The notes under the pieces are model-generated. The model was given only the letters and a program-made list of their open reading frames with translations. It did no database searches and had not been told where the DNA came from. Positions 172 through 24,882 of a stretch of 64,000 nucleotides of DNA are shown here, one piece after another (within the stretch, counting starts at the first letter, position 1; each line of letters opens with the position of its first letter). Where the stretch lies: contig JAGAHX010000009.1 in NCBI GenBank assembly GCA_017626845.1, positions 33,425-97,424 on the forward strand. The letters run 5' to 3'. Source of the stretch: Bacillota bacterium. Lineage in GTDB: Bacteria; Bacillota; Clostridia; Peptostreptococcales; Anaerovoracaceae. A program made the translations under genes and the position numbers.

Positions 172-903
172 ATGGGTATACTCACCGTACTTTGGGAAAA
201 ATGGGTGGAATTCCGCCGGGACTTTTATAAGATCACGGTCGCTGCCATGATCTCGCCCCTGATGTACCTGATCATCTTCGGCATGGGCATTCAGACCACG
301 TCCCACGGCGAACCGTATCTGCACTTTCTGATCCCCGGCGTCGTCGCCATGTCCACCATGACGGGCAGCTTTTCCGCGATCGCCCAGAACATGAGCGTAC
401 AGCGGCTGTACGAAAAGGCGCTGGACCAGGTGATGGTCTCGCCAACGCCGCTGTGGCAGTTCATTCTGGGTCAGGTGATCGGCGGCAGCCTTCGCGGCAT
501 GTATGCCGGCGGCATCATATTGCTGCTTACGATGCCGATCCGCACGGATCTTACGTTTAATGCGCTGTCCCTGTTCATCCTGTTCCTCAACGGCCTGGTG
601 TTCTCCACGATCGCGCTCACGCTTTCGTTCCTTGCGAAGAGCTACACGGATGCACCGCGCTTTACGTCGTACATCATTACGCCCATGAGTTTTCTGTGCA
701 ACACGTTCTTCTCCACGGAGCAGATGCCGGCGGGGTTCCGGCAGGCAGTCTCGGCCTTGCCGCTGTCCCAAAGCGCCGGCATGATCCGCGCCATCGCCAA
801 CGGGGAAGATCCCGGATGGGTCGGATTTGCCGTGCTGGCAGCCTATCTGCTCGTGTTCGGGTTGCTGTCGATGAACTTTATCTATAAGAAAAAGAATCTG
901 TAG
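172..903 (+). CDS. ABC-2 type exporter permease
   Basis: ORF 43..903. ATG 172 (MGILTVLWEKW...) lies just after the upstream stop. The protein is hydrophobic and multi-TM with ABC-2 permease character. The 43-171 extension overlaps the ATPase tail. Confidence 0.7.
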   Translation: MGILTVLWEKWVEFRRDFYKITVAAMISPLMYLIIFGMGIQTTSHGEPYLHFLIPGVVAMSTMTGSFSAIAQNMSVQRLYEKALDQVMVSPTPLWQFILGQVIGGSLRGMYAGGIILLLTMPIRTDLTFNALSLFILFLNGLVFSTIALTLSFLAKSYTDAPRFTSYIITPMSFLCNTFFSTEQMPAGFRQAVSALPLSQSAGMIRAIANGEDPGWVGFAVLAAYLLVFGLLSMNFIYKKKNL

Positions 904-914
904 GAGGTCTCTTC

Positions 915-1694
915 ATGAAAAAAGCATTGCTGGCGGTCAGTTTCGGCACGTCGTTTCCCGATACGAGAAGAAAGACCATCGAATCGGTCGAAGAAGATCT
1001 GCAGAAGGAATTCCCGGACCGGACGTTTTACCGGGCCTGGAGCAGCGGGTTTCTGCGCCGCAAGGTAAAGGAGAGAGAGGAGATCGTCATGGATTCTCCC
1101 GCAGAGGCGCTGGACCGCATGGCGGAAGACGGCGTGACCGACGTGATCGTCGCCAACATGCACCTGATGAGGGGTGAAGAAAACGATTCGCTTCAGAACG
1201 TGCTGCTGCAGAAGAAAGACAAGTTCGCCCGGCTGGCAATCGCAAGACCGCTGATGGCGGAAAATCAGGATATCTCAGCGCTGGCAAAGGTGCTTGCCGA
1301 GGAATTCTACTTTGCAAAAGTGGAGGAACTGGTGGCTCTGATGGGTCACGGCAGCGAATTCCCCATGGAGAATCCCTATTGCAGACTGCAGGAATCCCTG
1401 GAACAGATCGCGCCCGGACGCTTCTGCGTCGGCACCGTGGAGTTCGACCCCGGATTTGAACCCGTTCTGCAGGCTGCGAAGGCCAAAAGACCGGCAAAGA
1501 TCTGGCTGGCGCCCCTGATGGTCGTCGCAGGAGACCATGCGGTGAACGACATGGCAGGCGATGGGGACGACTCCTGGAACAGCCGCCTGCAGGCGGAAGG
1601 GTTCCGTACGGAATGCCTGCTGCAGGGGTTGGGACAGATCGCCGGTGTGCGGAAACTCTACTGCAGACACGCGCAAGAGGCAGAGGTTTTATGA
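915..1694 (+). CDS. cbiK: Sirohydrochlorin cobaltochelatase CbiK (cytoplasmic, no signal peptide)
   Basis: 259 aa. N-terminus has LLAVSFGTSF. LMGHGSE and VVAGDHAVNDMAGD carry the two metal-binding His typical of CbiK. Confidence 0.85.
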   Translation: MKKALLAVSFGTSFPDTRRKTIESVEEDLQKEFPDRTFYRAWSSGFLRRKVKEREEIVMDSPAEALDRMAEDGVTDVIVANMHLMRGEENDSLQNVLLQKKDKFARLAIARPLMAENQDISALAKVLAEEFYFAKVEELVALMGHGSEFPMENPYCRLQESLEQIAPGRFCVGTVEFDPGFEPVLQAAKAKRPAKIWLAPLMVVAGDHAVNDMAGDGDDSWNSRLQAEGFRTECLLQGLGQIAGVRKLYCRHAQEAEVL

Positions 1695-2791
1695 GGAAAA
1701 TTGTTTTCCAAAACAGAATAGCCCTCGGAAAGCGGCTGCTTGCTCTGTTGATCTGCCTGCTTTTCGTCCTGAGCGACGGTTCCGCATTTGTTTATGCGGA
1801 CGGCGAGGAGGAGCTGACCGTGCAGGAGCGGATCGCAGAGATCCAGAAGCAGATCCGCAGCCAGAAAGTAGGGCAGTACGGCATGGTTCCCATCGACGGC
1901 TCCCTCATCGCGGACGGAGAATATCCCATCCAGGTGGAGTCCAGCTCCCCGTTTTTCCGCATCATCGAGGCGGTTCTGAAGGTGCAGGGCGGCGAGATGA
2001 CCGCCGACATCACCATCTCCAGCCTAAGTTACCAGTGGGTGTACTGCGGCACGGGCGAACAGGCGGATGCGGACAGCGAAGCAAACTATATCGGATACCG
2101 CGATGACGGCGGTCACGGCGTATTTACAGTCCCCGTGGAAGCGCTGAACAAACCCATTCCCTGCGCCGCCTACAGCAAAAAGCGCAAACGCTGGTACGAC
2201 CGGGACATCCTGTTTGTTGCCTCGACGCTTCCCGAAGGCGTGCTGCATACAGAACTTCCAGACTTCGAAGCCATCGAAACTGCGTTGAAAGCGTACGAAG
2301 TAAAGGATATTCAGGAACTGGCATCCAAACCGCATAAGATCCCGGAACCGGTAAGCGTTCCGAAGTCCGACGGCGAGTATTCCATCGAAGTCAACATGAC
2401 CGGCGGCAGCGGCCGGGCCAGCATCAGTTCGCCCACGCTGCTCACCGTAAGGGACGGCAAAGCCTATGCCACGCTCATCTGGAGCAGCACCTATTACGAT
2501 TATATGATCCTCGAAGAGGAGTATTACCTCAACCTGACGGAGGACGGCGGCCCGTCCCGCTTCGAGATCCCGATCACGGCCATGGATACGCCGATCCCCG
2601 TCATTGCGGATACGACGGCCATGGGCGACCCTGTGGAGATCCGCTACGAACTGACGTTCTACGAGGAATCCATCGGGGAAAAGGGACAGATCCCCCAGGA
2701 AGCGGCGAAGAAGGTGCTGATGATCGCAGGCGCCATCATCGTGTTCGGCGGCATCCTGAACTATTTTGTAAAGAAGAAGCGGGCGGCTTAG
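1691..2791 (+). CDS. Secreted, C-terminally membrane-anchored protein with two beta-rich repeat domains, family not recognised (paralog of 8383..9297)
   Basis: ATG 1691 overlaps the cbiK stop (ATGA). Signal peptide is LLALLICLLFVLSDGSAFVYA and the C-terminal TM is VLMIAGAIIVFGGILNYFVKKKR. Long colinear similarity to 8383..9297. Confidence 0.75.
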   Translation: MRKIVFQNRIALGKRLLALLICLLFVLSDGSAFVYADGEEELTVQERIAEIQKQIRSQKVGQYGMVPIDGSLIADGEYPIQVESSSPFFRIIEAVLKVQGGEMTADITISSLSYQWVYCGTGEQADADSEANYIGYRDDGGHGVFTVPVEALNKPIPCAAYSKKRKRWYDRDILFVASTLPEGVLHTELPDFEAIETALKAYEVKDIQELASKPHKIPEPVSVPKSDGEYSIEVNMTGGSGRASISSPTLLTVRDGKAYATLIWSSTYYDYMILEEEYYLNLTEDGGPSRFEIPITAMDTPIPVIADTTAMGDPVEIRYELTFYEESIGEKGQIPQEAAKKVLMIAGAIIVFGGILNYFVKKKRAA

Positions 2792-2801: not shown

Positions 2802-3452
2802 ATGGCATATTTTCCGATCCTGATCGATTGGGACGGTCTGCCTTGCCTGGTGGCGGGCGGAGGCCGTCTTGCGCTGCATAAAGCGGCGCTGTTAACGGAG
2901 CAGGGGGCGGTGGTGACCGTCGTGGCGCCGGAGATCTGCGAAGAGATCCTGGCTCTTCCTGTGACCCCGGTATTGCGGAGGGTCACAGGGGAAGACGCTG
3001 CCGGCAAAGCCCTGGTGATCGACGCCACGGGCGACAGCGAAGCGCAAAAGCTCTTATCGGACGCCTGCAGACGGCAGAACGTGCCCTTTAACAGCGCGTG
3101 CAAGGTCGACGACGGAACGGCGATCTTTCCGGCGGTCCACAGACAGGGACGAACGGTCGTCGCCGTATCCAGCCTGGGAGCCAGTCCCGCTGCCAGCGCA
3201 AAACTACGCGATAAACTGGCAAACGAGGTTCCTGCGGAGATGGATGCGATCCTGGACTGCATGGCAGACCTGCGGCCGCTGTCCCGGGAATGGTTCTCCG
3301 AACAGCCGGAGCGAAGAGAATTCCTGCACCGCTGCCTGGATGCCATGCTGGCTTCCGGCAGACCTTTAAACGAAGAAACGGTCCGGGAGATCCGGAATTC
3401 CATTCGATCAATGTGTATTCAGCGAGAAGAAAAGGAGAAAACACATGGGTAA
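2802..3452 (+). CDS. Precorrin-2 dehydrogenase / sirohydrochlorin ferrochelatase (SirC / CysG N-terminal-domain type)
   Basis: 216 aa. N-terminal Rossmann motif VAGGGRLALHKAALLTEQGAVVTVVAPE is typical of siroheme synthase N-domain proteins. Confidence 0.75.
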   Translation: MAYFPILIDWDGLPCLVAGGGRLALHKAALLTEQGAVVTVVAPEICEEILALPVTPVLRRVTGEDAAGKALVIDATGDSEAQKLLSDACRRQNVPFNSACKVDDGTAIFPAVHRQGRTVVAVSSLGASPAASAKLRDKLANEVPAEMDAILDCMADLRPLSREWFSEQPERREFLHRCLDAMLASGRPLNEETVREIRNSIRSMCIQREEKEKTHG

Positions 3453-4404
3453 ACGATCCAAATTACTGATCTTACTGCTCTGCCTGTCCCTTCTGGCAGG
3501 CTGTGCAAAAACGGCGGAGCCGGAAGTAGAGGTGCAGCCGGCAGAATGGACTGCTGTAACCGTTACGGACGATCTGGGCAGGGAAGTGACCCTGGAGAAC
3601 GAGCCGCAGCGCGTTGCCTACCTCATCGGCAGCTTTGCGGAGACCTGGCAGCTGGCCGGCGGTGAAATGGCTGCTGCTGTCCGGGATGCCTGGGATGATT
3701 TCGATCTCGGCCTCGGCGAAGACGTCATCAATCTCGGCAAATATCAGGACGTCAACATGGAGATCCTGTTCGCAGCGGAGCCCGATCTTGTGATCGCCAG
3801 CGCCAATACGAAAGGGCAGGTCGAACTGAAGGAAACGCTGGAGAGCGCCGGCATCCCCGTGCTCTATTTCAGCGTATACGGCTTCGAAGATTATCTGCGG
3901 ATGCTGGACGTCTGCACCCAGATCACGGGCCGTCCGGACCTGTATGAAGAGAACGGCCTCAAGATCCAGCAGAACATCGAAACCGTAAAGCAGGCGGCTC
4001 AGGCCGCCGCAGCGGAACAGGGCGCTCCCAGAGTTCTATTCATCCGCGCCGCCGCATCTTTCGTCAGAGCGAAGGGCAGCGACGATACGGTCCTCGGCCT
4101 GATGCTGAAGGATCTGGGTTGCATCAATATTGCGGACGGCAGCGACCTTCTGGACGATCTTTCCATGGAAAAGATCATCGAAGAGGATCCGGACATGATC
4201 TTCATCGTGCAGCAAGGGAACGACACCGAAGGCACCCAGCAGGCACTGCAGGATGCGCTTACCGGCAACCCTGCATGGGCCGGACTGACTGCCGTGAAGG
4301 AAGACCGGGTCTACCACATGGATCGAAAACTATTCCACTTTAAGCCCAATAACCGTTGGGACCAGTCCTATGAGCAGCTCGAACAGATCCTCTACGGAGA
4401 ATAA
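3445..4404 (+). CDS. ABC importer substrate-binding lipoprotein (BtuF/FhuD-type, cluster A)
   Basis: Lipobox LLAGC at the N-terminus. Sits next to a FecCD permease and ATPase. DLVIAS and FIVQ motifs fit periplasmic-binding-protein type 2. Confidence 0.8.
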   Translation: MGKRSKLLILLLCLSLLAGCAKTAEPEVEVQPAEWTAVTVTDDLGREVTLENEPQRVAYLIGSFAETWQLAGGEMAAAVRDAWDDFDLGLGEDVINLGKYQDVNMEILFAAEPDLVIASANTKGQVELKETLESAGIPVLYFSVYGFEDYLRMLDVCTQITGRPDLYEENGLKIQQNIETVKQAAQAAAAEQGAPRVLFIRAAASFVRAKGSDDTVLGLMLKDLGCINIADGSDLLDDLSMEKIIEEDPDMIFIVQQGNDTEGTQQALQDALTGNPAWAGLTAVKEDRVYHMDRKLFHFKPNNRWDQSYEQLEQILYGE

Positions 4405-5383
4405 GACGATAACATTGATCGCAGCGGCTGCGACCTTCATGGCCGCTGCCGCCTTGCTGAATATCTGCCTGGGCGCCTCCCGCATCTCGCTTCCTCAGCT
4501 CTGGGAGGCGCTGCTCAGCGGGCCTGGTACGTCTGCCGCGTCCCGCATTCTCTGGTATGTCCGGCTGCCCCGCACTGCCGCCTGCCTGCTGGCGGGGGCA
4601 GGGCTTGCGGTGTCCGGCACCGTGATCCAGAAGGTGCTGGCCAATAATCTGGCATCGCCCGGGATCATCGGCGTCAATGCCGGTGCAGGTCTTGCGGTTG
4701 CCATCTGCAGCGGCTTCGGCATGTACTCCGCCTGGGTCATCGCGGGTTCCGCCTTCCTGGGCGCCATGATCGCCACCTTCGTCGTGGTCATCGTCGCCAG
4801 AAAGAGCAGCGCGTCCCGGACGACGGTCGTGTTGGGCGGCGTGGCCGTTACGGCCTGCCTGAACGCGGTGACCGAGACCATCATCGTCCTCATCCCGGAT
4901 GCGGCGCTTGCCAACGTGGATTTCCGGGTGGGTGGCTTTTCTGCGGTCAACCACGCGAGACTGGTGCCCGCCGCAGTGCTCATTCTGGCGGGGATCGTTC
5001 TGGTATGCACGCTGACGAACGAACTGGACGTACTGTCTCTTGGAGACGACACTGCCCATTCCCTGGGTCTTCGGGTCAACCGCATGCGCAACGGTTTTCT
5101 GACCCTGGCAGCGCTTCTGGCCGGAGCTACCGTAAGCTTTGCCGGCATCCTGGGATTTGTCGGGCTCATCGTGCCCCATATCGCCCGGCGCTTTATCGGA
5201 AACGAAAGCGGAAGGCTGCTGCCGTTCTGCGCGCTGATGGGGGCGGGATTTGTAACCATATGCGATCTGGCAGCACGCCTGATCTTTGCGCCTTACGAAG
5301 TATCCACGGGCATCCTGCTGAATTTCCTGGGCGGACCGTTCTTCGTCTGGCTGCTGCTGAAAAGAAAGGATAAGCACAAATGA
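4370..5383 (+). CDS. FecCD/BtuC-family ABC importer permease
   Basis: 337 aa and highly hydrophobic. LPRTAACLLAGAGLAVSGTVIQ and GILGFVGLIVPHIARR are hallmark FecCD motifs. Confidence 0.9.
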   Translation: MSSSNRSSTENKTITLIAAAATFMAAAALLNICLGASRISLPQLWEALLSGPGTSAASRILWYVRLPRTAACLLAGAGLAVSGTVIQKVLANNLASPGIIGVNAGAGLAVAICSGFGMYSAWVIAGSAFLGAMIATFVVVIVARKSSASRTTVVLGGVAVTACLNAVTETIIVLIPDAALANVDFRVGGFSAVNHARLVPAAVLILAGIVLVCTLTNELDVLSLGDDTAHSLGLRVNRMRNGFLTLAALLAGATVSFAGILGFVGLIVPHIARRFIGNESGRLLPFCALMGAGFVTICDLAARLIFAPYEVSTGILLNFLGGPFFVWLLLKRKDKHK

Positions 5384-6138
5384 TTTCCATACACGATCTG
5401 CATGCTTCCTATGAGGGAGACGAGATCCTGCACGGGATCGATGCTGCCTTTCCGGAAGGAAAGATCTCGGTGCTGATGGGTCCCAATGGCTGCGGGAAGA
5501 GCACCACGCTGCGCTCCCTCGTGCGCTTGGTTCCGCAGCGCAGCGGCCGGATCGAGATCGACGGACAGTCCGCGGATACCTATACGCCGCGGGATCTGGC
5601 CCGGAAGATCGCGTATCTGCCCCAGAGCAGAAACGTACCGGACATCGCGGTGCGTTCCCTGGTGATGCACGGCAGGTTTCCTTATCTGAGTTATCCGCGG
5701 CGCTATCGCCCGGAAGACCACCGGAAAGTACAAGAGGCGCTGGAATGGGTCGGTCTTTCGGATCTGGCGGACCGGAAGATGGAAAACCTCTCCGGGGGTC
5801 AACGGCAGAAGGCGTATCTGGCCATGGCGCTGGCGCAGGATACGGACGTCATCCTGATGGACGAACCGACGACGTTCCTGGACATCCGCAACCAATTCGA
5901 TCTTCTGGACCGGGCGAAGCAGCTGGCCCGGCAGGGAAAGACCGTCATCATGATCCTGCACGATTTTGAGGCCATCCTGCGCTACGCAGACCACGTCATC
6001 CTTCTGCACGACGGAAGCGTCCTGCAGGAGGGCAGGGCGGAAGATGTTCTCCGCTCGACCTCCATTCCGGAAGCGTTCCGGGTGACTCCTGTGTTCTATC
6101 AGGGCGACGATGGGTTGCACTGCTACGTGCATAAATAG
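5380..6138 (+). CDS. ABC importer ATP-binding protein (FepC/BtuD-type)
   Basis: Walker A GPNGCGKST, signature LSGGQRQ, Walker B ILMDEPT. 252 aa. Confidence 0.9.
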   Translation: MISIHDLHASYEGDEILHGIDAAFPEGKISVLMGPNGCGKSTTLRSLVRLVPQRSGRIEIDGQSADTYTPRDLARKIAYLPQSRNVPDIAVRSLVMHGRFPYLSYPRRYRPEDHRKVQEALEWVGLSDLADRKMENLSGGQRQKAYLAMALAQDTDVILMDEPTTFLDIRNQFDLLDRAKQLARQGKTVIMILHDFEAILRYADHVILLHDGSVLQEGRAEDVLRSTSIPEAFRVTPVFYQGDDGLHCYVHK

Positions 6139-6175: not shown

Positions 6176-6229
6176 TATTTTGTTATGCCGTGGGCAATTC
6201 CGCCCAGGGTTTTGACGTGCACAACTGAA

Positions 6230-6428
6230 TAAGAGACCGGTGCTCCGGCGTACAGATCAGTATGTCGGGGATAATAGGGAAACGGGTGAGAATCCCGTAC
6301 GATCTCGTCACTGTCATAGGCGAGTATGCGGCAACGCGAAATAAGCAGTCACTGATTCTCCATTGGGAAGACTGCCGCATATGAGGACCCTTCAGTCAGG
6401 AAACCTGCCGGTCATGGTACAGGAGCGT
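6230..6428 (+). ncRNA. Cobalamin (AdoCbl) riboswitch
   Basis: Core motifs read directly: AATAGGGAAACGGGTGAGAATCCCGT, TCGTCACTGT, CACTGATTCTCCATTGGGAAGAC and the B12 box CAGTCAGGAAACCTGCCGG. Lies about 80 nt upstream of the 6507 start, with a T-rich tract at 6466-6475. Confidence 0.85.
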
Positions 6429-6506: not shown

Positions 6507-8303
6507 ATGAAACTCAAGAAAATTCTTGCGCTGCTGCTGGCGCTGGTCCTCATCATGGGATCGCTGGCAGCATGCACCAGCTCTCAGCAGCCTGCTGAGG
6601 AAGAGGATGAAGAAAACTACGAGACCGGCGACGCGTCTCTGGACGATCCTCTGAATCAGGACGGCATCGGCCCCACCGAGATCTTAGTCGTATCTTTCGG
6701 AACCAGCTTTAACGATTCCAGAAGACTCACCATCGGCGCCATCGAAAAGGACATCGCCGCTGCTTTCCCGCAGTTTGACGTCCGCAGAGGCTTCACCGCG
6801 CAGATCATCATCGATCATGTGCAGAACAGAGACGGCGAAGTCATCGATAACTTCGAACAGGCCATGGACCGCGCAGTTGCCAACGGCGTCAAGAACATCA
6901 TCATCCAGCCGACCCACCTGATGGCAGGTCTGGAATACAACGACATCGTCGCTTCCGCAGCCAACTATGCCGACGCCTTCAACAGCATCACGATCGGCAA
7001 GAACCTGCTGGATACCGACAGCGATTTCGTGACCGTTGCAAGCCTTCTCTATGAAGAGACCAAGTCCTACGACGACGGCGAGACCGCGATCGTTTTCATG
7101 GGTCACGGCACCGAAGCTGAATCCAACAGCGTCTACGCTTCCATGCAGGCTACCTTCGACCAGATGGGTCTGAAAAACTGCTATGTCGGCACCGTCGAAG
7201 CGACTCCGTCCCTGGACGACGTCGTAGCAGCAGCCAAGGAAGGCGGCTATAAGAGAGTCGTTCTCGAGCCCATGATGATCGTCTGCGGCGACCACGCCAA
7301 CAACGACATGGCCGGCGATGAAGAAGACTCCTGGAAGAGCACTTTCGAAGCGGAAGGCTTTGAAGTCGAATGTGTCATGAAGGGCCTGGGCGAGATCCAG
7401 GGCATCCGCGATCTCATCGTAGAGCACCTGACCGAGACCATCGAAAATGCAGACGAAGATCTGCTCACCGGCGATGCGTCCAAGGACGACCCCCTCAACG
7501 CTGACGAGATCGGCGAAAACGAACTGCTCGTCGTATCCTTCGGCACCAGCTTTAACGACTCCAGAGTTGCCACCATCGGCGGTATCGAAAAAGCTCTGGC
7601 CGCAGCATTCCCCGAATGGAGCGTCCGCAGAGGCTTTACCGCTCAGATCATCATCGACCACGTAGCGGACAGAGACGGCGAAGTCATCGACAACTTCGAA
7701 GAAGCCATGGATCGCGCTGTTGCCAACGGCGTCAAGAACATCGTTATTCAGCCGACCCATCTGATGGCAGGTCTGGAATATAACGACATCGTTGCTTCCG
7801 CAGCGAACTATGCAGACGCGTTCGAATCCATCACGATCGGCAAGAACCTGCTGGATTCCGATGCGGACTTCGAGCACGTTGCTCAGGTCGTCCACGAAGA
7901 GACCCAGCAGTACGACGACGGCGAGACCGCCATCATCTTCATGGGTCACGGCACCGAAGCCGAATCCAACGCAGTCTACGCCAAGATGCAGACCGTGTTC
8001 GACAAGCTCGGCTATGCCAACTACTACATCGGCACCGTCGAAGCTACCCCGTCTCTGGACGACGTCGTAGCAGCAGCAAAAGCCGGCGGTTATAAGAAGG
8101 TCGTTCTCGAGCCTCTGATGATCGTCTGCGGCGACCACGCCAACAACGACATGGCAGGCGATGAGGAAGACTCCTGGAAGAGCACCTTCGAAGCAGAAGG
8201 CTTCGAGGTCGAATGCAACATGGTCGGTCTCGGCCAGCTGCCCGCGATCCAGGAACTGATCGTTGACCACTGCAAGGCCACGATGACCGAAGCAGGTTTC
8301 TAA
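6507..8303 (+). CDS. Lipoprotein made of two tandem full-length CbiK-like chelatase modules
   Basis: Lipobox GSLAAC at residues 18-23, then an acidic linker. Two 281-aa units each carry VVSFGTSFNDSR, FMGHGTEAESN and IVCGDHANNDMAGDEEDSW. Confidence 0.85.
   Translation: MKLKKILALLLALVLIMGSLAACTSSQQPAEEEDEENYETGDASLDDPLNQDGIGPTEILVVSFGTSFNDSRRLTIGAIEKDIAAAFPQFDVRRGFTAQIIIDHVQNRDGEVIDNFEQAMDRAVANGVKNIIIQPTHLMAGLEYNDIVASAANYADAFNSITIGKNLLDTDSDFVTVASLLYEETKSYDDGETAIVFMGHGTEAESNSVYASMQATFDQMGLKNCYVGTVEATPSLDDVVAAAKEGGYKRVVLEPMMIVCGDHANNDMAGDEEDSWKSTFEAEGFEVECVMKGLGEIQGIRDLIVEHLTETIENADEDLLTGDASKDDPLNADEIGENELLVVSFGTSFNDSRVATIGGIEKALAAAFPEWSVRRGFTAQIIIDHVADRDGEVIDNFEEAMDRAVANGVKNIVIQPTHLMAGLEYNDIVASAANYADAFESITIGKNLLDSDADFEHVAQVVHEETQQYDDGETAIIFMGHGTEAESNAVYAKMQTVFDKLGYANYYIGTVEATPSLDDVVAAAKAGGYKKVVLEPLMIVCGDHANNDMAGDEEDSWKSTFEAEGFEVECNMVGLGQLPAIQELIVDHCKATMTEAGF
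6627..8300 (+). repeat. In-frame tandem duplication with an 843-nt period (unit 1 6627-7469, unit 2 7470-8300)
   Basis: GDAS(L/K)DDPLN restarts exactly 843 nt (281 codons) after its first occurrence. The units are colinear and roughly four-fifths identical at protein level by eye. Confidence 0.9.
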
Positions 8304-8382: not shown

Positions 8383-9297
8383 ATGGACAGGAAGACCGTA
8401 AAATTATTGAGCCTTCTGCTCGCCGTGCTTTTAACGGCAGGAAGCTTCGCCGCCTGCACCCAGAGCAGTGAACCCGCAGAAGAACCCCAGACTGAAACGC
8501 AGGAAGAACCTTCGGAGACCAGCGATCAGATCGCATCGGAAGATGAAAAGATCGCCCGGGAAGACGTGGTGGAAGAGGGGATGATCCCCGTAGCCGCTGC
8601 GGACATCAAGGACGGCGTCTACGAAGTTCAGGTGGACAGCAGCTCCGGCATGTTCGTCGTAACGGGCTGCATCCTTACCGTGGAAAACGGCAGCATGACC
8701 GCCGACATCACCCTCAGCGGCGACGGATACCGCTATCTGTATCTGGGTACGCCGGAAGAGGCTGCATCCGCTCCCGAAAGCGATTATCTGATGCCGCAGA
8801 TCGACGAAAACGGCGTTCACCATTACACGTTTGCCGTGGATGCTCTGGACCAGGGCATCGACTGCGCCGCCTTCTCCGACAAGAAGGAAAAATGGTACGA
8901 CCGCATCCTCGTATTCCGCGCCTCTTCGCTTTCTCTCAGCGACTTCCGGGACGGTTTCATCAAGACGGCTTCCACGCTCGGTCTTGCGGACGGCGATTAC
9001 ACCTGTGAGGTAAGCCTGTCCGGCGGCAGCGGAAAGGCCAGCGTGGCTTCTCCCGCCAACCTGACGGTAAGAGGCGGCCGCGTGACCGCGGAGATCATCT
9101 GGAGCAGTGACAAGTACGACTATATGGTCGTCAACGGTGCGCATTATGATCCAATTTCCACCGAGAACGGCTCCACGTTCCTGATCCCTGTCGATGCCTT
9201 CGATTTCAGTCTGACGGTCATTGCCGACACCATCGCCATGAGCACGCCTCACGAGATCGAATACACGCTCAATTTCGATTCTTCCACGATCCAGTAA
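8383..9297 (+). CDS. Lipoprotein with two beta-rich repeat domains, family not recognised (paralog of 1691..2791)
   Basis: ATG 8383 is preceded by GGAAGAG. Signal and lipobox read LLAVLLTAGSFAAC. An acidic linker precedes two domains colinear with the 1691 protein. Confidence 0.75.
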   Translation: MDRKTVKLLSLLLAVLLTAGSFAACTQSSEPAEEPQTETQEEPSETSDQIASEDEKIAREDVVEEGMIPVAAADIKDGVYEVQVDSSSGMFVVTGCILTVENGSMTADITLSGDGYRYLYLGTPEEAASAPESDYLMPQIDENGVHHYTFAVDALDQGIDCAAFSDKKEKWYDRILVFRASSLSLSDFRDGFIKTASTLGLADGDYTCEVSLSGGSGKASVASPANLTVRGGRVTAEIIWSSDKYDYMVVNGAHYDPISTENGSTFLIPVDAFDFSLTVIADTIAMSTPHEIEYTLNFDSSTIQ

Positions 9298-10446
9298 ATG
9301 AAACACCTGAAACAAACAACGCTATGTCTTCTGCTGGCTGTCTGCCTTCTCATCCTGGCAGGCTGCGCGGCCGGCGGAGGATCTGCCGGGCAGCAGGACA
9401 CGCTGCCCGGTACGGACATTCCCAAGACGGATTCCATGGCTCTGGAATATGCGGATCAGTTTGCCGTCGATTATTACGAGGGCGGCTATAAGCTGCTCAC
9501 CGTAGTCCAGGGCGACCGGTACCTGCTGGTCCCGGAAGGGGCGGAGGTCCCTGCGGGACTGGACAGCAGCATCATCGTGCTGCAGGCGCCGGTGGAAAAA
9601 ATCTACATGGCCGCATCTTCCGTCATGTCCCTGTTCGACGCCATGGATGGACTGGACAGCATCCTGTTCTCCGCGACCCAGGCGAACGGTTGGTACGTAG
9701 AAAACGCGAAGAAGGCCATGGAAGAAGGGCGCATCTACTTTGCCGGCAAATACAGCGAACCGGATTACGAGGCGCTGCTGGAAGGGGAATGCGGACTTGC
9801 CATCGAGAATACGATGCTCCTCCACAGCCCGAAGGTGAAGGAGATGATCGAACAGCTGGGGATCCCCGTGCTTATCGAATACTCCAGCTACGAGAGCCAT
9901 CCGTTGGGGCGTACGGAATGGATCCGCTTCTTCGGCGCGCTGCTGGATAAGGAAGAGACCGCCAAGGCCTATTTCGACTCCCAGGTCGAGCGGGTAGCGG
10001 CGATCCAGTCCAACGAGAATACCGGCAAAAAACTGGGATTCTTCTACATCAGCCCCTCCGGCCGCGTGGTCGTCTACAGCGACAGCTGCTATGTCGCCAA
10101 GATGGTGGAGCTGGCCGGCGGCGAGTACCTGTTCCAAGGGGTCACCGACGAGGACAGCAGCCGCACCTCCGTCAACATCACCATGGAGGATTTCTACTCC
10201 TATGCGGTGGACGCCGACTATCTGATCTACAACGCCACCATCGACGATCCCGTCTATACGGTGGACCAGCTGCTGCAGAAGAGCGATCTTCTGGCGGAGC
10301 TGAAAGCGGTGCAGGACGGCCATGTCTGGTGCACGGGTAAATACATGTATCAGGCGTCGGACATCATCGGCGACCTTATCCTGGACATTCACCGGGTGCT
10401 TACGGATGACCCGGGCGAGATGTCCTTCATCTATCAGTTGCAGTAA
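9298..10446 (+). CDS. ABC importer substrate-binding lipoprotein (BtuF/FhuD-type)
   Basis: Lipobox LILAGC. 382 aa. Starts immediately after the upstream stop and is followed by a FecCD permease. Confidence 0.8.
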   Translation: MKHLKQTTLCLLLAVCLLILAGCAAGGGSAGQQDTLPGTDIPKTDSMALEYADQFAVDYYEGGYKLLTVVQGDRYLLVPEGAEVPAGLDSSIIVLQAPVEKIYMAASSVMSLFDAMDGLDSILFSATQANGWYVENAKKAMEEGRIYFAGKYSEPDYEALLEGECGLAIENTMLLHSPKVKEMIEQLGIPVLIEYSSYESHPLGRTEWIRFFGALLDKEETAKAYFDSQVERVAAIQSNENTGKKLGFFYISPSGRVVVYSDSCYVAKMVELAGGEYLFQGVTDEDSSRTSVNITMEDFYSYAVDADYLIYNATIDDPVYTVDQLLQKSDLLAELKAVQDGHVWCTGKYMYQASDIIGDLILDIHRVLTDDPGEMSFIYQLQ

Positions 10447-10456
10447 TGAGGATAGA

Positions 10457-11506
10457 ATGGGTAAAAGCAATCCGGAAAACGGTTACGATCTTTTAAAGCG
10501 CAGGCTTCGCTGCGAGACGGTTTTTGTGCTGCTCATCCTGGCATTCTGCGTCATTACCGTTCTGAATATCAACATCGGAAGCGTGCCGATCTCCGTAAAA
10601 GAGATCGCGCGCATTCTGTTTTTGCAGGAGGGTGACGCCACCCAGATGAACATCGTCTGGCGGATCCGTTTGCCCCGCATCATTACCGCTGCCGTGCTGG
10701 GCGGCGGTCTTTCTCTGTCCGGCTTCCTGCTGCAGACCTTCTTCAGCAATCCCATCGCCGGTCCTTTTGTGCTGGGCATCTCCTCCGGCGCAAAGTTGAC
10801 GGTCGCGCTCACCATGATCTATGCGCTGAGCTGGGCGGGTCATGTATCGTCCTTCCTGCTGGTGCTGGCGGCCTTCGTCGGCTCCATGCTCTCCACCGGA
10901 TTTATCCTGCTGGTATCTTCGAAACTGAAGAACATGTCGGCGCTGCTGGTGGCGGGCATCATGATCGGCTACATCTGCTCCGCCATTACGGATTTTGCCG
11001 TTACCTTTGCGGAAGAATCGGACATCATCAACCTGCGGAACTGGTCCCTGGGCAGCTTTTCCGGCATGAGCTGGGACAACGTAAAGATCGCCTGCATCAT
11101 CGTCGGCATTACCTCGGTCTGTGTGTTTTTCCTCTCGAAGCCCATCAACGCCTATCAGCTGGGGGAAAATTACGCCCGCAGCATGGGCGTCAACATCAAG
11201 ATGTTCCGCACGGCCCTCATCCTGCTCTCCAGCGTGCTGTCCGCCACGGTCACGGCTTTCGCGGGCCCCATCTCCTTCGTGGGCATCGCGGTGCCGCATC
11301 TCATCAAGCGCAGCCTGAACACGTCGAAGCCCATCGTCGTCATTCCGGCCTGCTTCCTGGGCGGTGCGGTGTTCTGCATGTTCTGCGACCTGGTGGCCCG
11401 GACGGCGTTTGCGCCTTCGGAACTCAACATTTCCACCGTAACGTCCATCTTCGGCGCGCCGGTCGTCATCGCCATGATGATCAAACGGCAGAAGGAGAAG
11501 CAGTAA
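10457..11506 (+). CDS. FecCD/BtuC-family ABC importer permease
   Basis: ATG 10457 (MGKSNPENG...) lies 10 nt after the upstream stop. FecCD motifs LPRIITAAVLGGGLSLSGFLLQ and ISFVGIAVPHLIKR are present. Confidence 0.9.
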   Translation: MGKSNPENGYDLLKRRLRCETVFVLLILAFCVITVLNINIGSVPISVKEIARILFLQEGDATQMNIVWRIRLPRIITAAVLGGGLSLSGFLLQTFFSNPIAGPFVLGISSGAKLTVALTMIYALSWAGHVSSFLLVLAAFVGSMLSTGFILLVSSKLKNMSALLVAGIMIGYICSAITDFAVTFAEESDIINLRNWSLGSFSGMSWDNVKIACIIVGITSVCVFFLSKPINAYQLGENYARSMGVNIKMFRTALILLSSVLSATVTAFAGPISFVGIAVPHLIKRSLNTSKPIVVIPACFLGGAVFCMFCDLVARTAFAPSELNISTVTSIFGAPVVIAMMIKRQKEKQ

Positions 11507-12631
11507 ATGGGTGAGCTGTATTTCAAGACAAAAGGCCTGACGGTCGGTTATAACGGAAAGCCGCTCATCCGGGACATCGAGTTCGGCGTGGAAAGAGGGG
11601 AGATCCTCACCCTCATCGGCCCCAACGGTTCCGGCAAATCCACGATCCTCAAATCCATCACGAAGCAGCTGAAGATCCTGGCGGGCACGGTCTATATCGC
11701 AGAGGACGATCTGAAGACCGTAAGCGCAAAGGAACTGGCGAAGAAGATGTCCGTCGTCCTGACGGAACGCATGAAACCGGAACTGATGAGCTGCCGGGAC
11801 ATCGTTGCAACGGGACGCTATCCCTATACGGGCAATCTGGGACTTCTGTCCGAAGAGGACGAAGCCATCGTGCAGCAGTCCATGGAGAGCGTCCACGTTC
11901 TGGACCTGCAGAACCGGGATTTCAACGCGATCTCCGACGGACAGCGGCAGCGCGTCCTGCTGGCCAGAGCGCTCTGCCAGCAGCCCGAGATCATTATTTT
12001 AGACGAACCCACGTCGTTCCTGGATATCCGCCACAAGCTGGAGTTGCTCTCCCTGCTGCGCAAACTTACGAAGGAGCGGGACATCGCCGTCATCATGTCC
12101 CTTCACGAGATCGATCTGGCCCAGAAGGTCTCTGATAAGGTGATCTGCGTGAAAGGTGAGATCATCGCGCGGTACGGCACACCTGCGGAAGTCTTTCAGG
12201 AAGAGACGATCCGGGAACTCTACGGCATCGAAAACGGCACTTACGATCCGCTCTTCGGCAGCATCGAGCTGGGCAGGCCCCAGGGCACGCCGGAGATCCT
12301 CGTACTGTCCAACGGCGGAAGCGGCATTCCGGTCTACCGGGATCTGCAGAAACAGGGAACGCCTTTTGCGGCAGCCATCCTGAGCACCAACGACATGGAC
12401 TACGCCGTCGCGCGGCACATGGCGACGGAGATCGTGACGGCAGCCCCGTTCCAGCCCATAACGGAAGAGGCGCTGGACCGCACCATGGCGCTGGTGAGAT
12501 CCTGCAAAGAAGTGATCGATGCGGGGGTCACCATCGGGCAGACCAATCAGGCCATGGAAGAGATCCTGGCGGAGGCGGAACGCCTCGGCAAACGGAAGAA
12601 GGTGAAACAGCATGACGTTCTTCCGGTATAA
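11507..12631 (+). CDS. ABC importer ATP-binding protein with an extra C-terminal domain of about 115 aa
   Basis: Walker A GPNGSGKST, signature ISDGQRQ, Walker B IILDEPT. 374 aa, against 252 aa for the paralog at 5380. Confidence 0.85.
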   Translation: MGELYFKTKGLTVGYNGKPLIRDIEFGVERGEILTLIGPNGSGKSTILKSITKQLKILAGTVYIAEDDLKTVSAKELAKKMSVVLTERMKPELMSCRDIVATGRYPYTGNLGLLSEEDEAIVQQSMESVHVLDLQNRDFNAISDGQRQRVLLARALCQQPEIIILDEPTSFLDIRHKLELLSLLRKLTKERDIAVIMSLHEIDLAQKVSDKVICVKGEIIARYGTPAEVFQEETIRELYGIENGTYDPLFGSIELGRPQGTPEILVLSNGGSGIPVYRDLQKQGTPFAAAILSTNDMDYAVARHMATEIVTAAPFQPITEEALDRTMALVRSCKEVIDAGVTIGQTNQAMEEILAEAERLGKRKKVKQHDVLPV

Positions 12632-13574
12632 TGCGATCGCCATGGCGGCGGGGCTCCTGCTGGACCTTCTGATCGGAGATCCGGAAAACTGGCCCCATCC
12701 CGTCATCTGGATCGGAAAATGGATCTCTTTCTGCGACCGCAAGATCCGGGCCAAGGCGGCAGGGGATAAGACGAAGCTGCGCCGGGGATCCGTCTGGATG
12801 ACCGCAAGCACCGTCCTTTTCTCCATGACTGTAACGGCAGCCGTGCTGCGGGTCGCCGCATTCGGAGGGACCTACGTGCTGCTTGGGCTCATGTCCATAA
12901 TTTCCTGGACTTGCCTCGCCTCCAAAAGCCTCGCAAAGGAAGCCCGCGGCGTGCAGAAGGCGCTGGAGCAGAGCCTGGAAAAGGGCAGAAAACAGGTGGG
13001 ACGCATCGTGGGAAGAGATACGGCGTCGCTTTCCGCGGAGGAGATCGTGGCGGCTACGGTGGAGACCGTGGCGGAGAACACGACCGACGGCATCATTTCA
13101 CCCCTGATCTATCTGTTTTTAGGCGGACCTGTGCTGGCCATGGGCTTTAAAGCCGCCAGCACCTTGGATTCCATGGAAGGCTATCTGGATGAAAAGTACC
13201 GGGACATCGGCTGGTCCGGAGCAAAACTGGACGACGTTCTGAACTATGTGCCGGCCCGCATCAGCGGTCATCTGATGTGCCTGGCGGCATTTCTGACCGG
13301 CACAGACGGCAGAAATGCTTATAAGATCCTAAAGCGGGACCACGCCAATCACCTGAGTCCCAACTGCGCCTGGACGGAGAGCGCAGCGGCAGGCGCCCTG
13401 CACGTGCAGCTGGGCGGCAGCCACGAATACTTCGGCAAGGTGATCGAAAAACCGACGATCGGAGATGCGGACCGTCCCATTCAGGCGGACGACATTCAAA
13501 AGACGAACCGGCTGATGTACGGCACCACGTTCCTGGCGGCAGGAGCGCTGACCGTCCTCGGCCTGATGTTATAA
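12612..13574 (+). CDS. cbiB: Adenosylcobinamide-phosphate synthase CbiB
   Basis: N-terminal LLLDLLIGDPENWPHPV is the CobD/CbiB family signature. Membrane protein of 320 aa. Confidence 0.85.
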   Translation: MTFFRYNAIAMAAGLLLDLLIGDPENWPHPVIWIGKWISFCDRKIRAKAAGDKTKLRRGSVWMTASTVLFSMTVTAAVLRVAAFGGTYVLLGLMSIISWTCLASKSLAKEARGVQKALEQSLEKGRKQVGRIVGRDTASLSAEEIVAATVETVAENTTDGIISPLIYLFLGGPVLAMGFKAASTLDSMEGYLDEKYRDIGWSGAKLDDVLNYVPARISGHLMCLAAFLTGTDGRNAYKILKRDHANHLSPNCAWTESAAAGALHVQLGGSHEYFGKVIEKPTIGDADRPIQADDIQKTNRLMYGTTFLAAGALTVLGLML

Positions 13575-13581
13575 ACTGCGT

Positions 13582-14646
13582 ATGGAAAAATTGAGAGAAG
13601 GGTTTACGACCGGAAGCTGCGCGGCGGCAGCAGCCCTGGCCTGCTGTCTGTGGCAGCGGGACGGAGCCTGTCCCGAGGCGGTGGAACTGGAAGTGCCCGG
13701 CGGAAAAGTATATAGACCGGAGATCCTGCCCCACGGGGACGGAAGCTGCGGCATCATCAAGGACAGCGGCGACGATCCGGACATTACGAACGGCATGGAG
13801 GTCATCGCAAAGGTGGAACTGTTCCCGGAGGATGGACCCATCTCGTTCTGTGCGGGAGAAGGCATCGGCATCATCACCCAGCCGGGACTGAAGATCCCGG
13901 TGGGAGAGCCTGCCATCAATCCGGTACCGCGTCAGATGATCGAAGGCGCGGTGCGCAGCGTGTTCGGGTCAAAAGGAGCCGTCGTGACCATCTCCATCCC
14001 CGGCGGCGCCGACATCGCAAAGAAGACCTTCAATCCCAGACTCGGCATCGAAGGCGGCCTGTCCGTGCTGGGGACCACCGGCATCCTCCGTCCTATGAGT
14101 CTGGAAGCCCTGCGGGATTCCCTGTACGTGGAACTCAAGATGCGGGCGGAGCAGGGGCATAAGGCGCTGGCGTTCACCTTCGGCAACCAGGGAGAATCGG
14201 CGCTGCAGACCATAGGCTGCAGGCTGCCGGTCGTTCAGGTAAGCAACGAGATCGGCTTTATGCTGGATTCCGCCAAGGAACTGGGGATCGAATATCTGCT
14301 GGTGAGCGGTCACCCGGGCAAGATGACGAAGATCGCGGCAGGCATTATGCAGACCCACAGCCATACGGCGGACGGCAGAAAAGAAGGGATCATTACGCAG
14401 CTGGCCCTGATGGGTGCACCGAAACAGCTTTGCGAGCAGGTGTACGGCTGCGTTACGACGGATTCCGCGGCGGAGTTCATCCACAAGGCCGGATACGACG
14501 GCGTGTGGGACCGCATCGCTGCGGCCGCGAAAGATTATATGACGTTCCGGGTTCGGGATGCGGTCCGGATCGAAGCGATGGTGACGGACTACGCCGGAAA
14601 CGTGATGGGAAAGTCCGCAGAGCATCCGGAAGGGTTGGAACTATGA
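13582..14646 (+). CDS. cbiD: Cobalt-precorrin-5B (C1)-methyltransferase CbiD
   Basis: N-terminal LREGFTTGSCAAAAA and GDDPDITNG motifs are typical of CbiD. 354 aa. Confidence 0.85.
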   Translation: MEKLREGFTTGSCAAAAALACCLWQRDGACPEAVELEVPGGKVYRPEILPHGDGSCGIIKDSGDDPDITNGMEVIAKVELFPEDGPISFCAGEGIGIITQPGLKIPVGEPAINPVPRQMIEGAVRSVFGSKGAVVTISIPGGADIAKKTFNPRLGIEGGLSVLGTTGILRPMSLEALRDSLYVELKMRAEQGHKALAFTFGNQGESALQTIGCRLPVVQVSNEIGFMLDSAKELGIEYLLVSGHPGKMTKIAAGIMQTHSHTADGRKEGIITQLALMGAPKQLCEQVYGCVTTDSAAEFIHKAGYDGVWDRIAAAAKDYMTFRVRDAVRIEAMVTDYAGNVMGKSAEHPEGLEL

Positions 14647-15701
14647 ATACCATAACACACGGAGGAAACGTCTGGCAGGGCAGCAGCCCCGGCGAATGGC
14701 TGGATTACTCCGCGAACATAAGACCGGACGGCGCGCCTGCATGGGTCAAAGAAGCCCTGCAGCAGGCGATGGACAATATCTCGTATTATCCGCCTGTGGA
14801 CATGCACCGGGCGAGAAAAGGCCTGGCGGAGTATCTGGAGCTTCCGGAGCAATTCGTGCAGCCGGCATCCGGCGGCGCCTCCGCCATCGAACTGGCCACC
14901 CGCTGCGGCATGAACCAGGTGCTGCTGTGTGCGCCCTGCTTCGGGGAATACAAAGGAGCGGCGCTCAAGGCGGGACTGCCGGTGGAGACCGTCGTCCTGC
15001 TCCGCAAAGACCGTAGCATCGCTTCCCCCGCGGAAGCCATCCGGGATACGCTGCAGGAACGGACCCTCATCTGGATCTGCAGTCCCATGAATCCCACGGG
15101 ACACACCTTCAGCAGGCAGGAGATCCTGGACCTGCTGGACCTGGCGAGGGAACACCGGAGCCGCGTCGCGCTGGATGAAGCCTTTATCGACTTCTGTCCC
15201 GGTGCCAGCAACCGCGATCTGATCAAGACCTGGCCGGAACTGATCGTGACCGGCTCCATGACGAAGATCCTCGGCATTCCCGGAGTCCGGCTCGGTTATC
15301 TGTGCAGCCAGGACGCTCTGCAGCTGGGCGGCAAATGCCTGCCCTGGGAGCTGAACTGCTTCGCGGAAGAAGTGGCGGCGCAGCTGCCGGCTCATAAGGA
15401 AGAGATGCTGGCGGATGCGGATGCCAGCCGTCTCCGCACTGAAAGCTTTACAAAGCAGCTGCAGGAACTGGGCCTTGCCGTTTATCCCTCGGCTTCCAAT
15501 TTCGTCCTGATCGACCTGGGCCGGGATGCAGAGCCCGTCATCGAAGCGCTCAAAGGAAAAAAGATCCTGGTGCGCCGCTGCATGGACTTTGCCGGGATCG
15601 ACGACGGACGCCATCTGCGGCTGGCCGTCAAAGACGAAGAATCGAATCAACTTTTTATCCATACACTGAAGGAGATCCTCACATGCGCGGAAAATCATTG
15701 A
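14643..15701 (+). CDS. cobD: L-threonine-O-3-phosphate decarboxylase (CobD-type class I/II aminotransferase fold)
   Basis: ATG 14643 overlaps the cbiD stop. HGGN near the N-terminus. The SMTKILGIPGVRLGY lysine motif, length and context fit CobD. Confidence 0.75.
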   Translation: MNTITHGGNVWQGSSPGEWLDYSANIRPDGAPAWVKEALQQAMDNISYYPPVDMHRARKGLAEYLELPEQFVQPASGGASAIELATRCGMNQVLLCAPCFGEYKGAALKAGLPVETVVLLRKDRSIASPAEAIRDTLQERTLIWICSPMNPTGHTFSRQEILDLLDLAREHRSRVALDEAFIDFCPGASNRDLIKTWPELIVTGSMTKILGIPGVRLGYLCSQDALQLGGKCLPWELNCFAEEVAAQLPAHKEEMLADADASRLRTESFTKQLQELGLAVYPSASNFVLIDLGRDAEPVIEALKGKKILVRRCMDFAGIDDGRHLRLAVKDEESNQLFIHTLKEILTCAENH

Positions 15702-19193: not shown

Positions 19194-19198
19194 ATACT

Positions 19199-24474: not shown

Positions 24475-24496
24475 AGAGGCGGAATTAGACAGATTT

Positions 24497-24520
24497 GAGG
24501 ACGGTAAGTCCTCTTTTTTT
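24497..24520 (+). terminator. Rho-independent terminator closing the long + strand operon
   Basis: GAGGAC-GGTAA-GTCCTC hairpin followed by T7. Confidence 0.75.
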
Positions 24521-24630
24521 ATATTTTGACTGGGTCAACTCCCCAATTCCGGGATACGGGTTAACGCCGTATAACTGCGCCTTTGTGACTTATAATATTC
24601 ATAGAAAACATAATAAACGGAGGCAAAGAT

Positions 24631-24882
24631 ATGAAATACGACAAATTGGCATTATTCGCAGGCGGTGTACTGTTCGGTACGGCGGGGATCGCGGTCCTGG
24701 CCAGCAGAGAGGCGAAAAAGGTCTATACGGCCTGCACGGCAGCCGTTCTTCGCGGCAAGGATGCCGTAATGGACTGCTATGAGACGCTGAAGGAAAACTG
24801 CGAGGACATCGTTGCGGATGCGGAAGATCTGAACGAGATGCGCTATGCGGAAGACGCGGCCATGGAACTGGAAGCGGCCTGA
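24631..24882 (+). CDS. Small protein with an N-terminal TM helix and acidic helical tail (function unknown)
   Basis: RBS GGAGG upstream. 83 aa with LALFAGGVLFGTAGIAVLA TM. Ends at a TGA that is followed by 27 more in-frame sense codons. Confidence 0.55.
   Translation: MKYDKLALFAGGVLFGTAGIAVLASREAKKVYTACTAAVLRGKDAVMDCYETLKENCEDIVADAEDLNEMRYAEDAAMELEAA

Follow-up and report, generated by a model that had tools for sequence, protein, structure and literature searches.

In textbooks, NEAT domains are the receptors with which Gram-positive pathogens bind heme and hemoproteins. In the Isd relay, NEAT proteins (IsdB, IsdH, IsdA and IsdC in Staphylococcus aureus; IsdX1 and IsdX2 in Bacillus anthracis) work ahead of the importer IsdE-IsdF, and the heme oxygenases of the system are IsdG and IsdI. 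Here, we describe two genes, whose products we call A and B, for which this relay is the closest working analogue. They lie in a 64,000-nucleotide stretch of DNA (the window) from a Bacillota bacterium of the family Anaerovoracaceae, assembly GCA_017626845.1, contig JAGAHX010000009.1, positions 33,425 to 97,424. Both proteins consist of two very divergent NEAT domains that arose by internal duplication and do not carry the canonical YxxxY heme signature. At the level of fold the proteins are ordinary, and it is their regulation, partners, and likely ligand that are unusual. We consider it somewhat probable that A and B are tandem NEAT-fold, membrane-tethered carriers in a vitamin B12-riboswitch-repressed system by which anaerobic Clostridia acquire a cobalt tetrapyrrole or corrinoid. 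The context points to an undescribed cell-surface relay for such a ligand in gut and rumen Clostridia.

Two other described systems resemble parts of the locus. In Bacteroides, the surface proteins BtuG, BtuH, BtuJ (DUF4465), and BtuK feed captured corrinoids to BtuB and BtuFCD, and a 2026 review calls extracellular corrinoid capture in Gram-positive bacteria "entirely uncharacterized" (PMC13616437). The second involves exported forms of the cobaltochelatase CbiK. A single B12 element regulates both cbiK-cbiL and btuCDF in Desulfovibrio (PMC545781), and the surface CbiK homolog FetB of Porphyromonas gingivalis has Co/Mn chelatase activity and binds metalloporphyrins (PMC13065792). Our full-text literature searches turned up no paper that connects NEAT domains with B12, corrinoids, or riboswitches, and none that describes an ABC-2 transporter (of the ATP-binding cassette, ABC, superfamily) in a B12 regulon.

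The two proteins and the domains of A are as follows:

1691..2791, plus strand: protein A, 366 residues, with a signal peptide, domain 1 (D1), a helical linker, domain 2 (D2), a juxtamembrane motif, and a transmembrane (TM) anchor (AlphaFold, Foldseek).
1871..2230, plus strand: D1 of A, residues 61-180, with the SSS-x-FF lip, C158, and the W168-Y169-x-R171 motif (weak Pfam NEAT match over residues 94-156, column census).
2357..2674, plus strand: D2 of A, residues 223-328, with the GGSGRAS lip, WSS-YYDYM, and M311 with Y319 (hhalign, profile match to IsdX1).
2675..2788, plus strand: juxtamembrane motif (G)QIPQEAAKKV, TM helix, and KKKR tail of A (conservation).
8383..9297, plus strand: protein B, a 304-residue lipoprotein with D1 at about residues 64-183 (nucleotides 8572-8931) and D2 at about residues 199-300 (nucleotides 8977-9282) (BLASTP against A).

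A and B were found by BLASTP to share 38% identity and 58% positives over 286 residues (E 2e-61), colinear across both domains. The N-terminus of A reads MRKIVFQNRIALGKRLLALLICLLFVLSDGSAFVYA followed by DG, a signal peptide, and in its AlphaFold model residues 3-30 and 335-365 form helices at the N-terminal and C-terminal ends, the chain ending in KKKRAA; that of B, MDRKTVKLLSLLLAVLLTAGSFAAC, is a lipobox. An earlier note, made from the letters of this DNA, had described a paralogous pair with shared colinear motifs, a signal peptide and C-terminal TM helix in A, a lipobox in B, and one fold displayed by two anchoring solutions. All of this was borne out by the alignment, which includes the quoted motifs, and by the open reading frames and modelled helices. 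The same note had been unable to assign the family, which the structural comparison now does.

Modelled with AlphaFold from an alignment of 45 homologs, A reaches a predicted local distance difference test score (pLDDT) of 88 and shows two beta-sandwich domains joined by short helices. When the model was searched against the PDB with Foldseek, it matched the N1-linker-N2 unit of IsdB and the N2-linker-N3 unit of IsdH with E-values of 1e-9 to 1e-7 and a probability of 1.0, and IsdX1 (3SIK) with a template-modelling score of 0.69-0.70 and a root-mean-square deviation of 2.8-2.9 A over 120 residues. Every significant PDB match was a NEAT protein, and A has the eight-stranded immunoglobulin-like beta-sandwich of the NEAT family (PF05031). 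Relative to the Pfam gathering cut-off of 32.8 bits, A scored 20.0 bits and B gave no match; two relatives exceeded the cut-off (P0101, 34.7 bits; P0186, 33.1 bits), others scored 27-32 bits, and many homologs of B carry PF05031. By hhalign, D1 is a homolog of D2 (probability 97.7%, E 1.5e-12), and each protein is therefore an internal duplication.

NEAT structures were reached by sequence only with profiles built from more divergent members of the family. The D2 profile of such members matched the IsdX1 NEAT domain (E 5e-4), with GGSG(R/K)AS aligned to the heme-contacting lip SSRMN, and the D1 profile aligned weakly but over its full length with IsdX2-NEAT5 (E 0.14). As a single query against PDB sequences, A gave just chance plasmepsin matches; a first D1 profile from close homologs found no match, and hhalign of that first profile against IsdA alone returned a probability of 0.3%. 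NCBIfam holds no model for A or B. Given the Foldseek matches, the divergent-profile matches to IsdX1 and IsdX2, and the two relatives above the Pfam cut-off, A and B are NEAT proteins at the far edge of the family. An FMN-binding (flavin mononucleotide) domain, an idea taken from one Joint Genome Institute (JGI) protein name and the DGxY and GGSG motifs, was rejected, as there was no Pfam FMN_bind match and Foldseek returned NEAT only. No adhesin-type family, the outcome that the earlier note had set against its own proposal, emerged. The folds of BtuG, BtuH, BtuJ, and BtuK were absent from the 50 Foldseek PDB matches listed, and neither A nor B had a Pfam DUF4465 match.

To map the binding site, we combined Pfam coordinates anchored on IsdA (its sequence is identical to 2ITE) with hhalign and profile alignments; at the axial position these alignments are weak, and the residue assignments that follow are to be read accordingly. 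Y169 in D1 and Y319 in D2 are invariant and match the second, hydrogen-bonding tyrosine of the NEAT YxxxY motif. At the axial-tyrosine position, the column census found Arg or Lys in D1 of both protein types, giving [RK]xxxY, and Val, Leu, or Ile in D2 of 120 of the 121 A-type proteins, giving [VLI]xxxY. D2 of the 121 B-type proteins carries His there in 103, Tyr in 16, and Lys in two; in B of the window, the stretch P-H-E-I-E-Y gives HxxxY instead of YxxxY. M311, C158, W168, and R171 are invariant or nearly so. The lip is present yet shortened (SSS-x-FF in D1, GGSG(R/K)AS in D2). These substitutions suggest that His or Tyr in D2 of B-type proteins can serve as a ligand to the metal of a tetrapyrrole and that the A-type domains are without that ligand. 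The Foldseek matches also include 3QZP, the structure of IsdA with Co-protoporphyrin IX, so NEAT pockets accept a cobalt porphyrin.

The surroundings of the two genes in the window are as follows:

172..903, plus strand: ABC-2 permease (YadH/NodJ/DrrB-like), complete, 243 residues (Pfam ABC2_membrane on homologs).
915..1694, plus strand: cytoplasmic sirohydrochlorin cobaltochelatase CbiK without a signal peptide, triad H145/E176/H208 (Pfam CbiK, E 5e-67).
2802..3452, plus strand: SirC-like precorrin-2 dehydrogenase, NAD_binding_7 and Sirohm_synth_M (Pfam).
3445..6138, plus strand: BtuFCD-type importer 1, with lipoprotein binding protein (Peripla_BP_2) 3445-4404, FecCD permease 4370-5383, and ATPase 5380-6138 (Pfam, NCBIfam).
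6221..6426, plus strand: cobalamin riboswitch heading the second operon (Rfam RF00174, 92.4 bits, E 1e-21).
6507..8303, plus strand: extracytoplasmic lipoprotein with two complete CbiK domains and the lipobox LAAC (Pfam CbiK twice, E 8e-154).
9298..12631, plus strand: BtuFCD-type importer 2, with lipoprotein binding protein (Peripla_BP_2) 9298-10446, permease at about 10457-11506, and ATPase with a C-terminal extension 11507-12631 (Pfam, NCBIfam).
12612..23636, plus strand: rest of the second operon, for anaerobic cobalamin biosynthesis, with CbiB, CbiD, CobD, CobQ, CbiA, CbiC, CbiF, CbiG, CbiH, and a CbiJ-CbiET fusion (open reading frames, Pfam).

To see how far this arrangement is conserved, we fetched 80 A-type loci from GTDB genomes and 80 B-type loci from metagenomes, the latter falling into 25 clusters at 90% identity, with 10-kb flanks in each case. 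Riboswitches were called with Rfam RF00174 in the window and seven loci and with our own covariance model across the A-type and B-type loci. A HMMER profile scan over 1.84 billion representatives (clustered at 50% identity) placed at least 2,258 representatives in the NEAT-like family, which is abundant in human-gut metagenomes; architectures and fusions were counted in the best 149 of these 2,258. Most A-type sources were Lachnospiraceae and Oscillospiraceae of the rumen and gut; Coriobacteriaceae and Eubacterium nodatum contributed a few. B-type genes are seemingly the more numerous.

The earlier note had placed A and B each between a CbiK gene and a BtuFCD importer. This describes the flanks in the window and B-type loci generally. 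For A, a CbiK gene does lie directly upstream, but the importer is not immediate, as the SirC-like gene at 2802-3452 intervenes, and across A-type loci BtuFC follows A in just 11 of 60, versus a DrrA-like ATPase and ABC-2 permease directly upstream in 58 of 61. That note had overlooked both the riboswitch at 6221-6426 and the permease at 172-903, the real conserved partner of A. Its association of the pair with tetrapyrrole and corrinoid genes stands, through riboswitch control, conserved synteny, and gene fusions, and from fold and context we infer a surface role in tetrapyrrole handling.

B-type genes were found in a compact cassette with the order cobalamin riboswitch, lipoprotein CbiK, B, BtuF-like binding protein, FecCD permease, and ATPase with a C-terminal extension. 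A plus-strand cobalamin riboswitch lay upstream in 20/20 informative clusters; the gene immediately before the B-type gene encoded CbiK in 21/21, and the one immediately after it encoded a BtuF-like lipoprotein in 17/18. The linked CbiK carried a lipobox at 58 of 62 loci, and the FecCD permease was present at 47 of 48. Other cob genes occurred within 10 kb in 3/12 clusters, and the cassette is therefore usually stand-alone; an ABC-2 permease was seen at two of 80 B-type loci. Both triads of the two-domain surface CbiK in the window are intact (H200/E231/H263 and H481/E512/H544), and the His/Glu/His triad was kept in 56/56 distinct surface CbiK segments. We take this metal-site triad to be H145, E175, and H207 in Salmonella enterica numbering.

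Several features of this cassette are those of Isd. Beyond the shared beta-sandwich, the NEAT-helical linker-NEAT layout of IsdB and IsdH, and a lip homologous to the SSRM lip of IsdX1, both systems have multi-NEAT proteins and place a surface NEAT gene beside the class III lipoprotein binding protein of a FecCD-type importer, followed by permease and ATPase. IsdE is the best NCBIfam match of the importer-2 binding protein and a leading one of the importer-1 binding protein, far below cut-off in both cases. These likenesses could be taken to mean ordinary heme acquisition, with A and B as heme NEAT receptors feeding IsdE-like importers as in Staphylococcus and Bacillus. The Foldseek matches to heme-binding NEAT domains, the canonical YxxxY in D2 of the 16 B-type proteins with an axial Tyr, and the heme binding of exported CbiK homologs (PMC13065792) would all suit it. 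Isd, however, is under Fur, whereas the A and B loci are under cobalamin riboswitches, which sense corrinoids and not iron or heme (no Fur-box search was made here); the neighbours are CbiK, SirC, CbiL, and cob genes, not heme oxygenases, and the surrounding operons are those of cob/hem biosynthesis. A lipid or a TM helix anchors the proteins, in place of the sortase/LPXTG anchoring of Isd (no LPXTG signal in any of the 149 representatives), the axial Tyr is replaced in most domains, and NEAT fusions to the binding protein and to the chelatase are frequent. Taken as a whole, the loci lack the hallmarks of an Isd-type heme locus (iron/Fur control, LPXTG or NPQTN sortase signals, a heme-degrading enzyme); no iron-regulated neighbours recur, and the recurrent ones are Hem and Cob enzymes and the ABC-2 transporter. 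Heme uptake is hard to reconcile with the data because of the cobalamin riboswitches, and we regard it as very improbable.

The Bacteroides system is nearer in logic than in structure. It likewise has riboswitch-controlled, lipid-anchored accessory proteins beside a corrinoid importer, paralogs within a genome, and a hand-over between proteins of the kind that we propose here, but its folds (beta-propeller, jellyroll, PKD plus propeller) are unrelated to NEAT (PMC13616437). The Clostridia described here differ further, with no outer membrane or BtuB and with a CbiK chelatase as an obligatory member of the cassette.

The exported chelatases of Desulfovibrio vulgaris (periplasmic CbiK) and P. 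gingivalis (FetB/IhtB) resemble the surface CbiK more directly, as each is a CbiK with an export signal beside a Fec/Btu-type ABC importer. The parts of PMC545781 and PMC13065792 that we drew on describe no NEAT partner for them. In our loci, the chelatase may be tandem-duplicated (as at 6507-8303 in the window) or fused to a NEAT pair, and the physiological role in the older systems is unsettled. We know of no NEAT partner for either exported CbiK.

Gene fusions tie the components of the cassette together. NEAT repeats, two to ten of them, are fused to a C-terminal BtuF-like binding protein in 48 of the 149 representatives, and CbiK is fused in front of a NEAT pair in four. The fusions keep the gene order of chelatase, NEAT protein, and binding protein, which is an argument for joint action of the three on a single ligand. 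A large NEAT family sits in the B12-riboswitch regulons of commensal gut and rumen Clostridia, linked or fused to surface cobaltochelatase and BtuF-like proteins. Two questions become testable with it: by what means Gram-positive gut bacteria take hold of corrinoids or cobalt on the outer side of the membrane, and what purpose exported CbiK chelatases serve, which has not been settled since the reports of periplasmic CbiK in Desulfovibrio and of IhtB/FetB in P. gingivalis.

Several variants were also observed. Seven giant proteins (P0253, 1965 residues; P0331, 2538 residues; P0261, P0262, P0290, P0348, and P0379) have 6-10 matched NEAT-like stretches and a partial BtuF-like end, and may be cut off at contig ends. 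In some operons, a single-domain NEAT-like lipoprotein of about 157 residues, with WYDH for WYDR, replaces B between the surface CbiK and the binding protein (L048, 5224-5697 on the minus strand; L037, L042, L043, L047, L005, L060, and L076), and a 328-residue lipoprotein variant recurs in six further loci. A conserved acidic motif precedes each CbiK domain at 6507-8303 of the window (NYETGDASLDDPLNQDGIG and LLTGDASKDDPLNADEIG) and is also found in the single-domain surface CbiKs of L115, L048, and L165. L115, an abundant human-gut B-type cassette, has two gaps free of open reading frames of at least 90 residues, one between surface CbiK and B and the other between permease and ATPase (9449-10001, about 550 bp, and 13069-13808, about 740 bp). 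In the window, the importer-2 ATPase (11507-12631) has a C-terminal extension of about 120 residues; its best NCBIfam match is PRK09536, an archaeal "corrinoid ABC transporter ATPase", over residues 8-357 and below cut-off (224 vs 537 bits), which hints at a corrinoid ligand. A PDB sequence search with binding protein 2 gave no informative match, nor did one with the ABC-2 permease.

A-type genes belong to a different module. The ABC-2 permease was upstream of A at 62 of 68 loci and within 4 kb at 55 of 56; in the window, its DrrA-like ATPase lies upstream, beyond the window edge. A SirC-like gene was directly downstream of A at 37/77 loci, and a cytoplasmic CbiK gene was in the operon at 33/68. 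At 26 A-type loci, a plus-strand cobalamin riboswitch was seen upstream, and the operon there read (HemA/C/B/L, CobA)-CbiL-ATPase-ABC2-(CbiK)-A-(SirC)-(BtuFCD). For A of the window, the upstream region that would hold a riboswitch falls outside the window; in L001, an 89%-identical relative, both operons carry a riboswitch (two aptamers). Some genomes have a self-contained nine-gene cassette of CbiL-ATPase-ABC2-CbiK-A-SirC-binding protein-permease-ATPase. Median identity across A-type loci was 84% for the permease, 57% for A, and 45% for CbiK. Across L002-L081, including Coriobacteriaceae, the permease, ATPase, and CbiL were 74-84% identical (median) and the flanking genes 31-57%; either the constraint is unusually tight or the CbiL-ATPase-ABC2 block has spread horizontally. 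The analysis also flags an extremely conserved ABC-2 transporter as a candidate component of the anaerobic B12 pathway. Within A, the majority-residue fraction is 0.86 in the juxtamembrane motif, 0.70 in the TM helix, and 0.27 in the signal peptide; because TM and juxtamembrane segments are as conserved as the domains, we suggest a membrane partner against which the helix packs. For the permease, the AlphaFold model (pLDDT 51, shallow alignment) was too poor for fold comparison, and the NCBIfam matches were to generic ABC-2 families, all below cut-off.

ABC-2 transporters are normally exporters. ABC-2/type V or exporter-fold ABC systems with extracytoplasmic partners or with tetrapyrrole or B12 substrates include NosDFY-NosL, CcmAB-CcmE, and ABCG2, and Rv1819c of Mycobacterium tuberculosis reportedly belongs among them. 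As in such systems, the permease and ATPase described here are genetically locked to a membrane-anchored extracytoplasmic beta-sandwich in a cofactor pathway, but the window permease has no detectable sequence relation to any of these systems beyond the generic ABC-2 family.

In classical cbi operons, cbiMNQO lies between cbiL and cbiK. That is the place taken here by the ATPase-ABC2-A block, and no CbiM, CbiN, or CbiQ was seen in the window or among recurrent neighbours, which is the part of the genomes covered. The block, perhaps with surface CbiK, B, and the importer, could accordingly replace CbiMNQO in the uptake of ionic or loosely chelated cobalt, the surface CbiK and NEAT-like domains then being extracytoplasmic cobalt-binding proteins. 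With HemA/L/B/C, CobA, SirC, CbiK, and CbiL, the operon encodes everything up to Co-factor III save cobalt supply, and one A-type cassette has a NiCo riboswitch and an efflux gene beside it. Cobalt importers are typically under B12 riboswitches (PMC7689651), and some CbiK-using genomes lack any recognised cobalt transporter (PMC545781). Yet NEAT domains bind tetrapyrroles or proteins, A has no invariant His-rich or Cys-rich metal site, and proteins with up to 10 matched NEAT-like stretches, fused to a class III binding protein of the siderophore/heme/B12 type, better suit an organic ligand. We also know of no bacterial ABC-2 metal importer. Cobalt-ion uptake is, in our judgement, quite improbable. 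The NiCo riboswitch is in L016 (14038-14119, minus strand, 62 bits) and precedes a cation diffusion facilitator (CDF)-type efflux gene (13050-13955, minus strand); a heavy-metal P-type ATPase lies downstream at five further A-type loci (L038, L039, L042, L047, and L073).

In several lineages, the A and B modules lie next to each other, either as in the window, L001/L082, L065, L070, and L165 or, in L037/L043/L048, divergently. A bolder scheme would join them into an extracytoplasmic cobalt-insertion loop in gut and rumen Clostridia, with sirohydrochlorin as a "cobaltophore". The ABC-2 pump would export sirohydrochlorin made by CobA and SirC, TM-anchored A would hold it, and surface CbiK would insert scarce Co2+; B would bind the cobalt product through His, and the BtuF-like protein and ABC importer would return it for CbiL. 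If true, the cobalt insertion of B12 synthesis would be run outside the cell, and a pathway intermediate would double as a tethered metallophore. The window holds all the parts, each tethered to the membrane, within two neighbouring riboswitch operons, and the nine-gene cassette joins exporter-type and importer-type ABC systems with three enzymes around cobalt insertion. The uniformly intact surface CbiK triads, the order kept in the fusions, the side-by-side modules, and the absence of CbiM/N/Q from the window and the recurrent neighbours also agree with it, as does the chelatase activity of FetB at the cell surface (PMC13065792). An A-type D2 without axial ligand versus a B-type D2 with His or Tyr fits a metal-free substrate and a metallated product. 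However, a cytoplasmic CbiK is encoded in the same operons at nearly half of the A-type loci counted above, the L048 operon has both forms, and B-type cassettes are mostly stand-alone and seemingly outnumber A-type ones. The loop is without precedent, and we consider it unlikely.

We return to A and B as tethered carriers for acquisition. The analysis shows their fold and paralogy, the riboswitches, the conserved order of the genes, and the fusions; what the ligand is, which way it passes, and whether the ABC-2 transporter works in import or export, we infer. B and the surface CbiK-type lipoprotein would bind a metallated tetrapyrrole outside the membrane, much as Isd NEAT receptors do. The ligand of B would most likely be a corrinoid or other cobalt tetrapyrrole, held through the His (or Tyr) at the NEAT axial-tyrosine position, and B would hand it to the BtuF-like lipoprotein of the adjacent importer. 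A would be the same module on a conserved C-terminal TM helix and would serve as extracytoplasmic partner of the DrrA/ABC-2 transporter, whose genes sit between cbiL and cbiK/sirC in the early-pathway B12 operon.

Several points weigh against this proposal. It is not obvious why corrinoid salvage would need a chelatase whose catalytic triad is intact, but all B-type cassettes have such an enzyme (56/56 distinct segments). A transporter of a normally exporting class coupled to an uptake receptor is unexplained, and a riboswitch was found at only 18 of the 45 A-type loci having at least 9 kb of upstream sequence. The heme-binding NEAT signature (YxxxY on strand beta-8 and a 3-10 helix lip with Ser) is not matched by the A and B domains as mapped. 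With Arg/Lys (D1) and Val/Leu/Ile (D2) at its axial positions, A may bind a metal-free ligand, rely on other residues (M311 or C158, for example), or bind no tetrapyrrole. The residue mapping itself comes from weak profile alignments (E 0.14 for D1).

Two further features were noted downstream in the window. Right after the cob operon, at 23641-26559, come genes for a patatin-like phospholipase and for an E1-E2 (P-type) ATPase. A 6S RNA (Rfam RF00013, 55 bits) was identified at 28878-29060, just downstream of a gene for a YebC/TACO1-family regulator.

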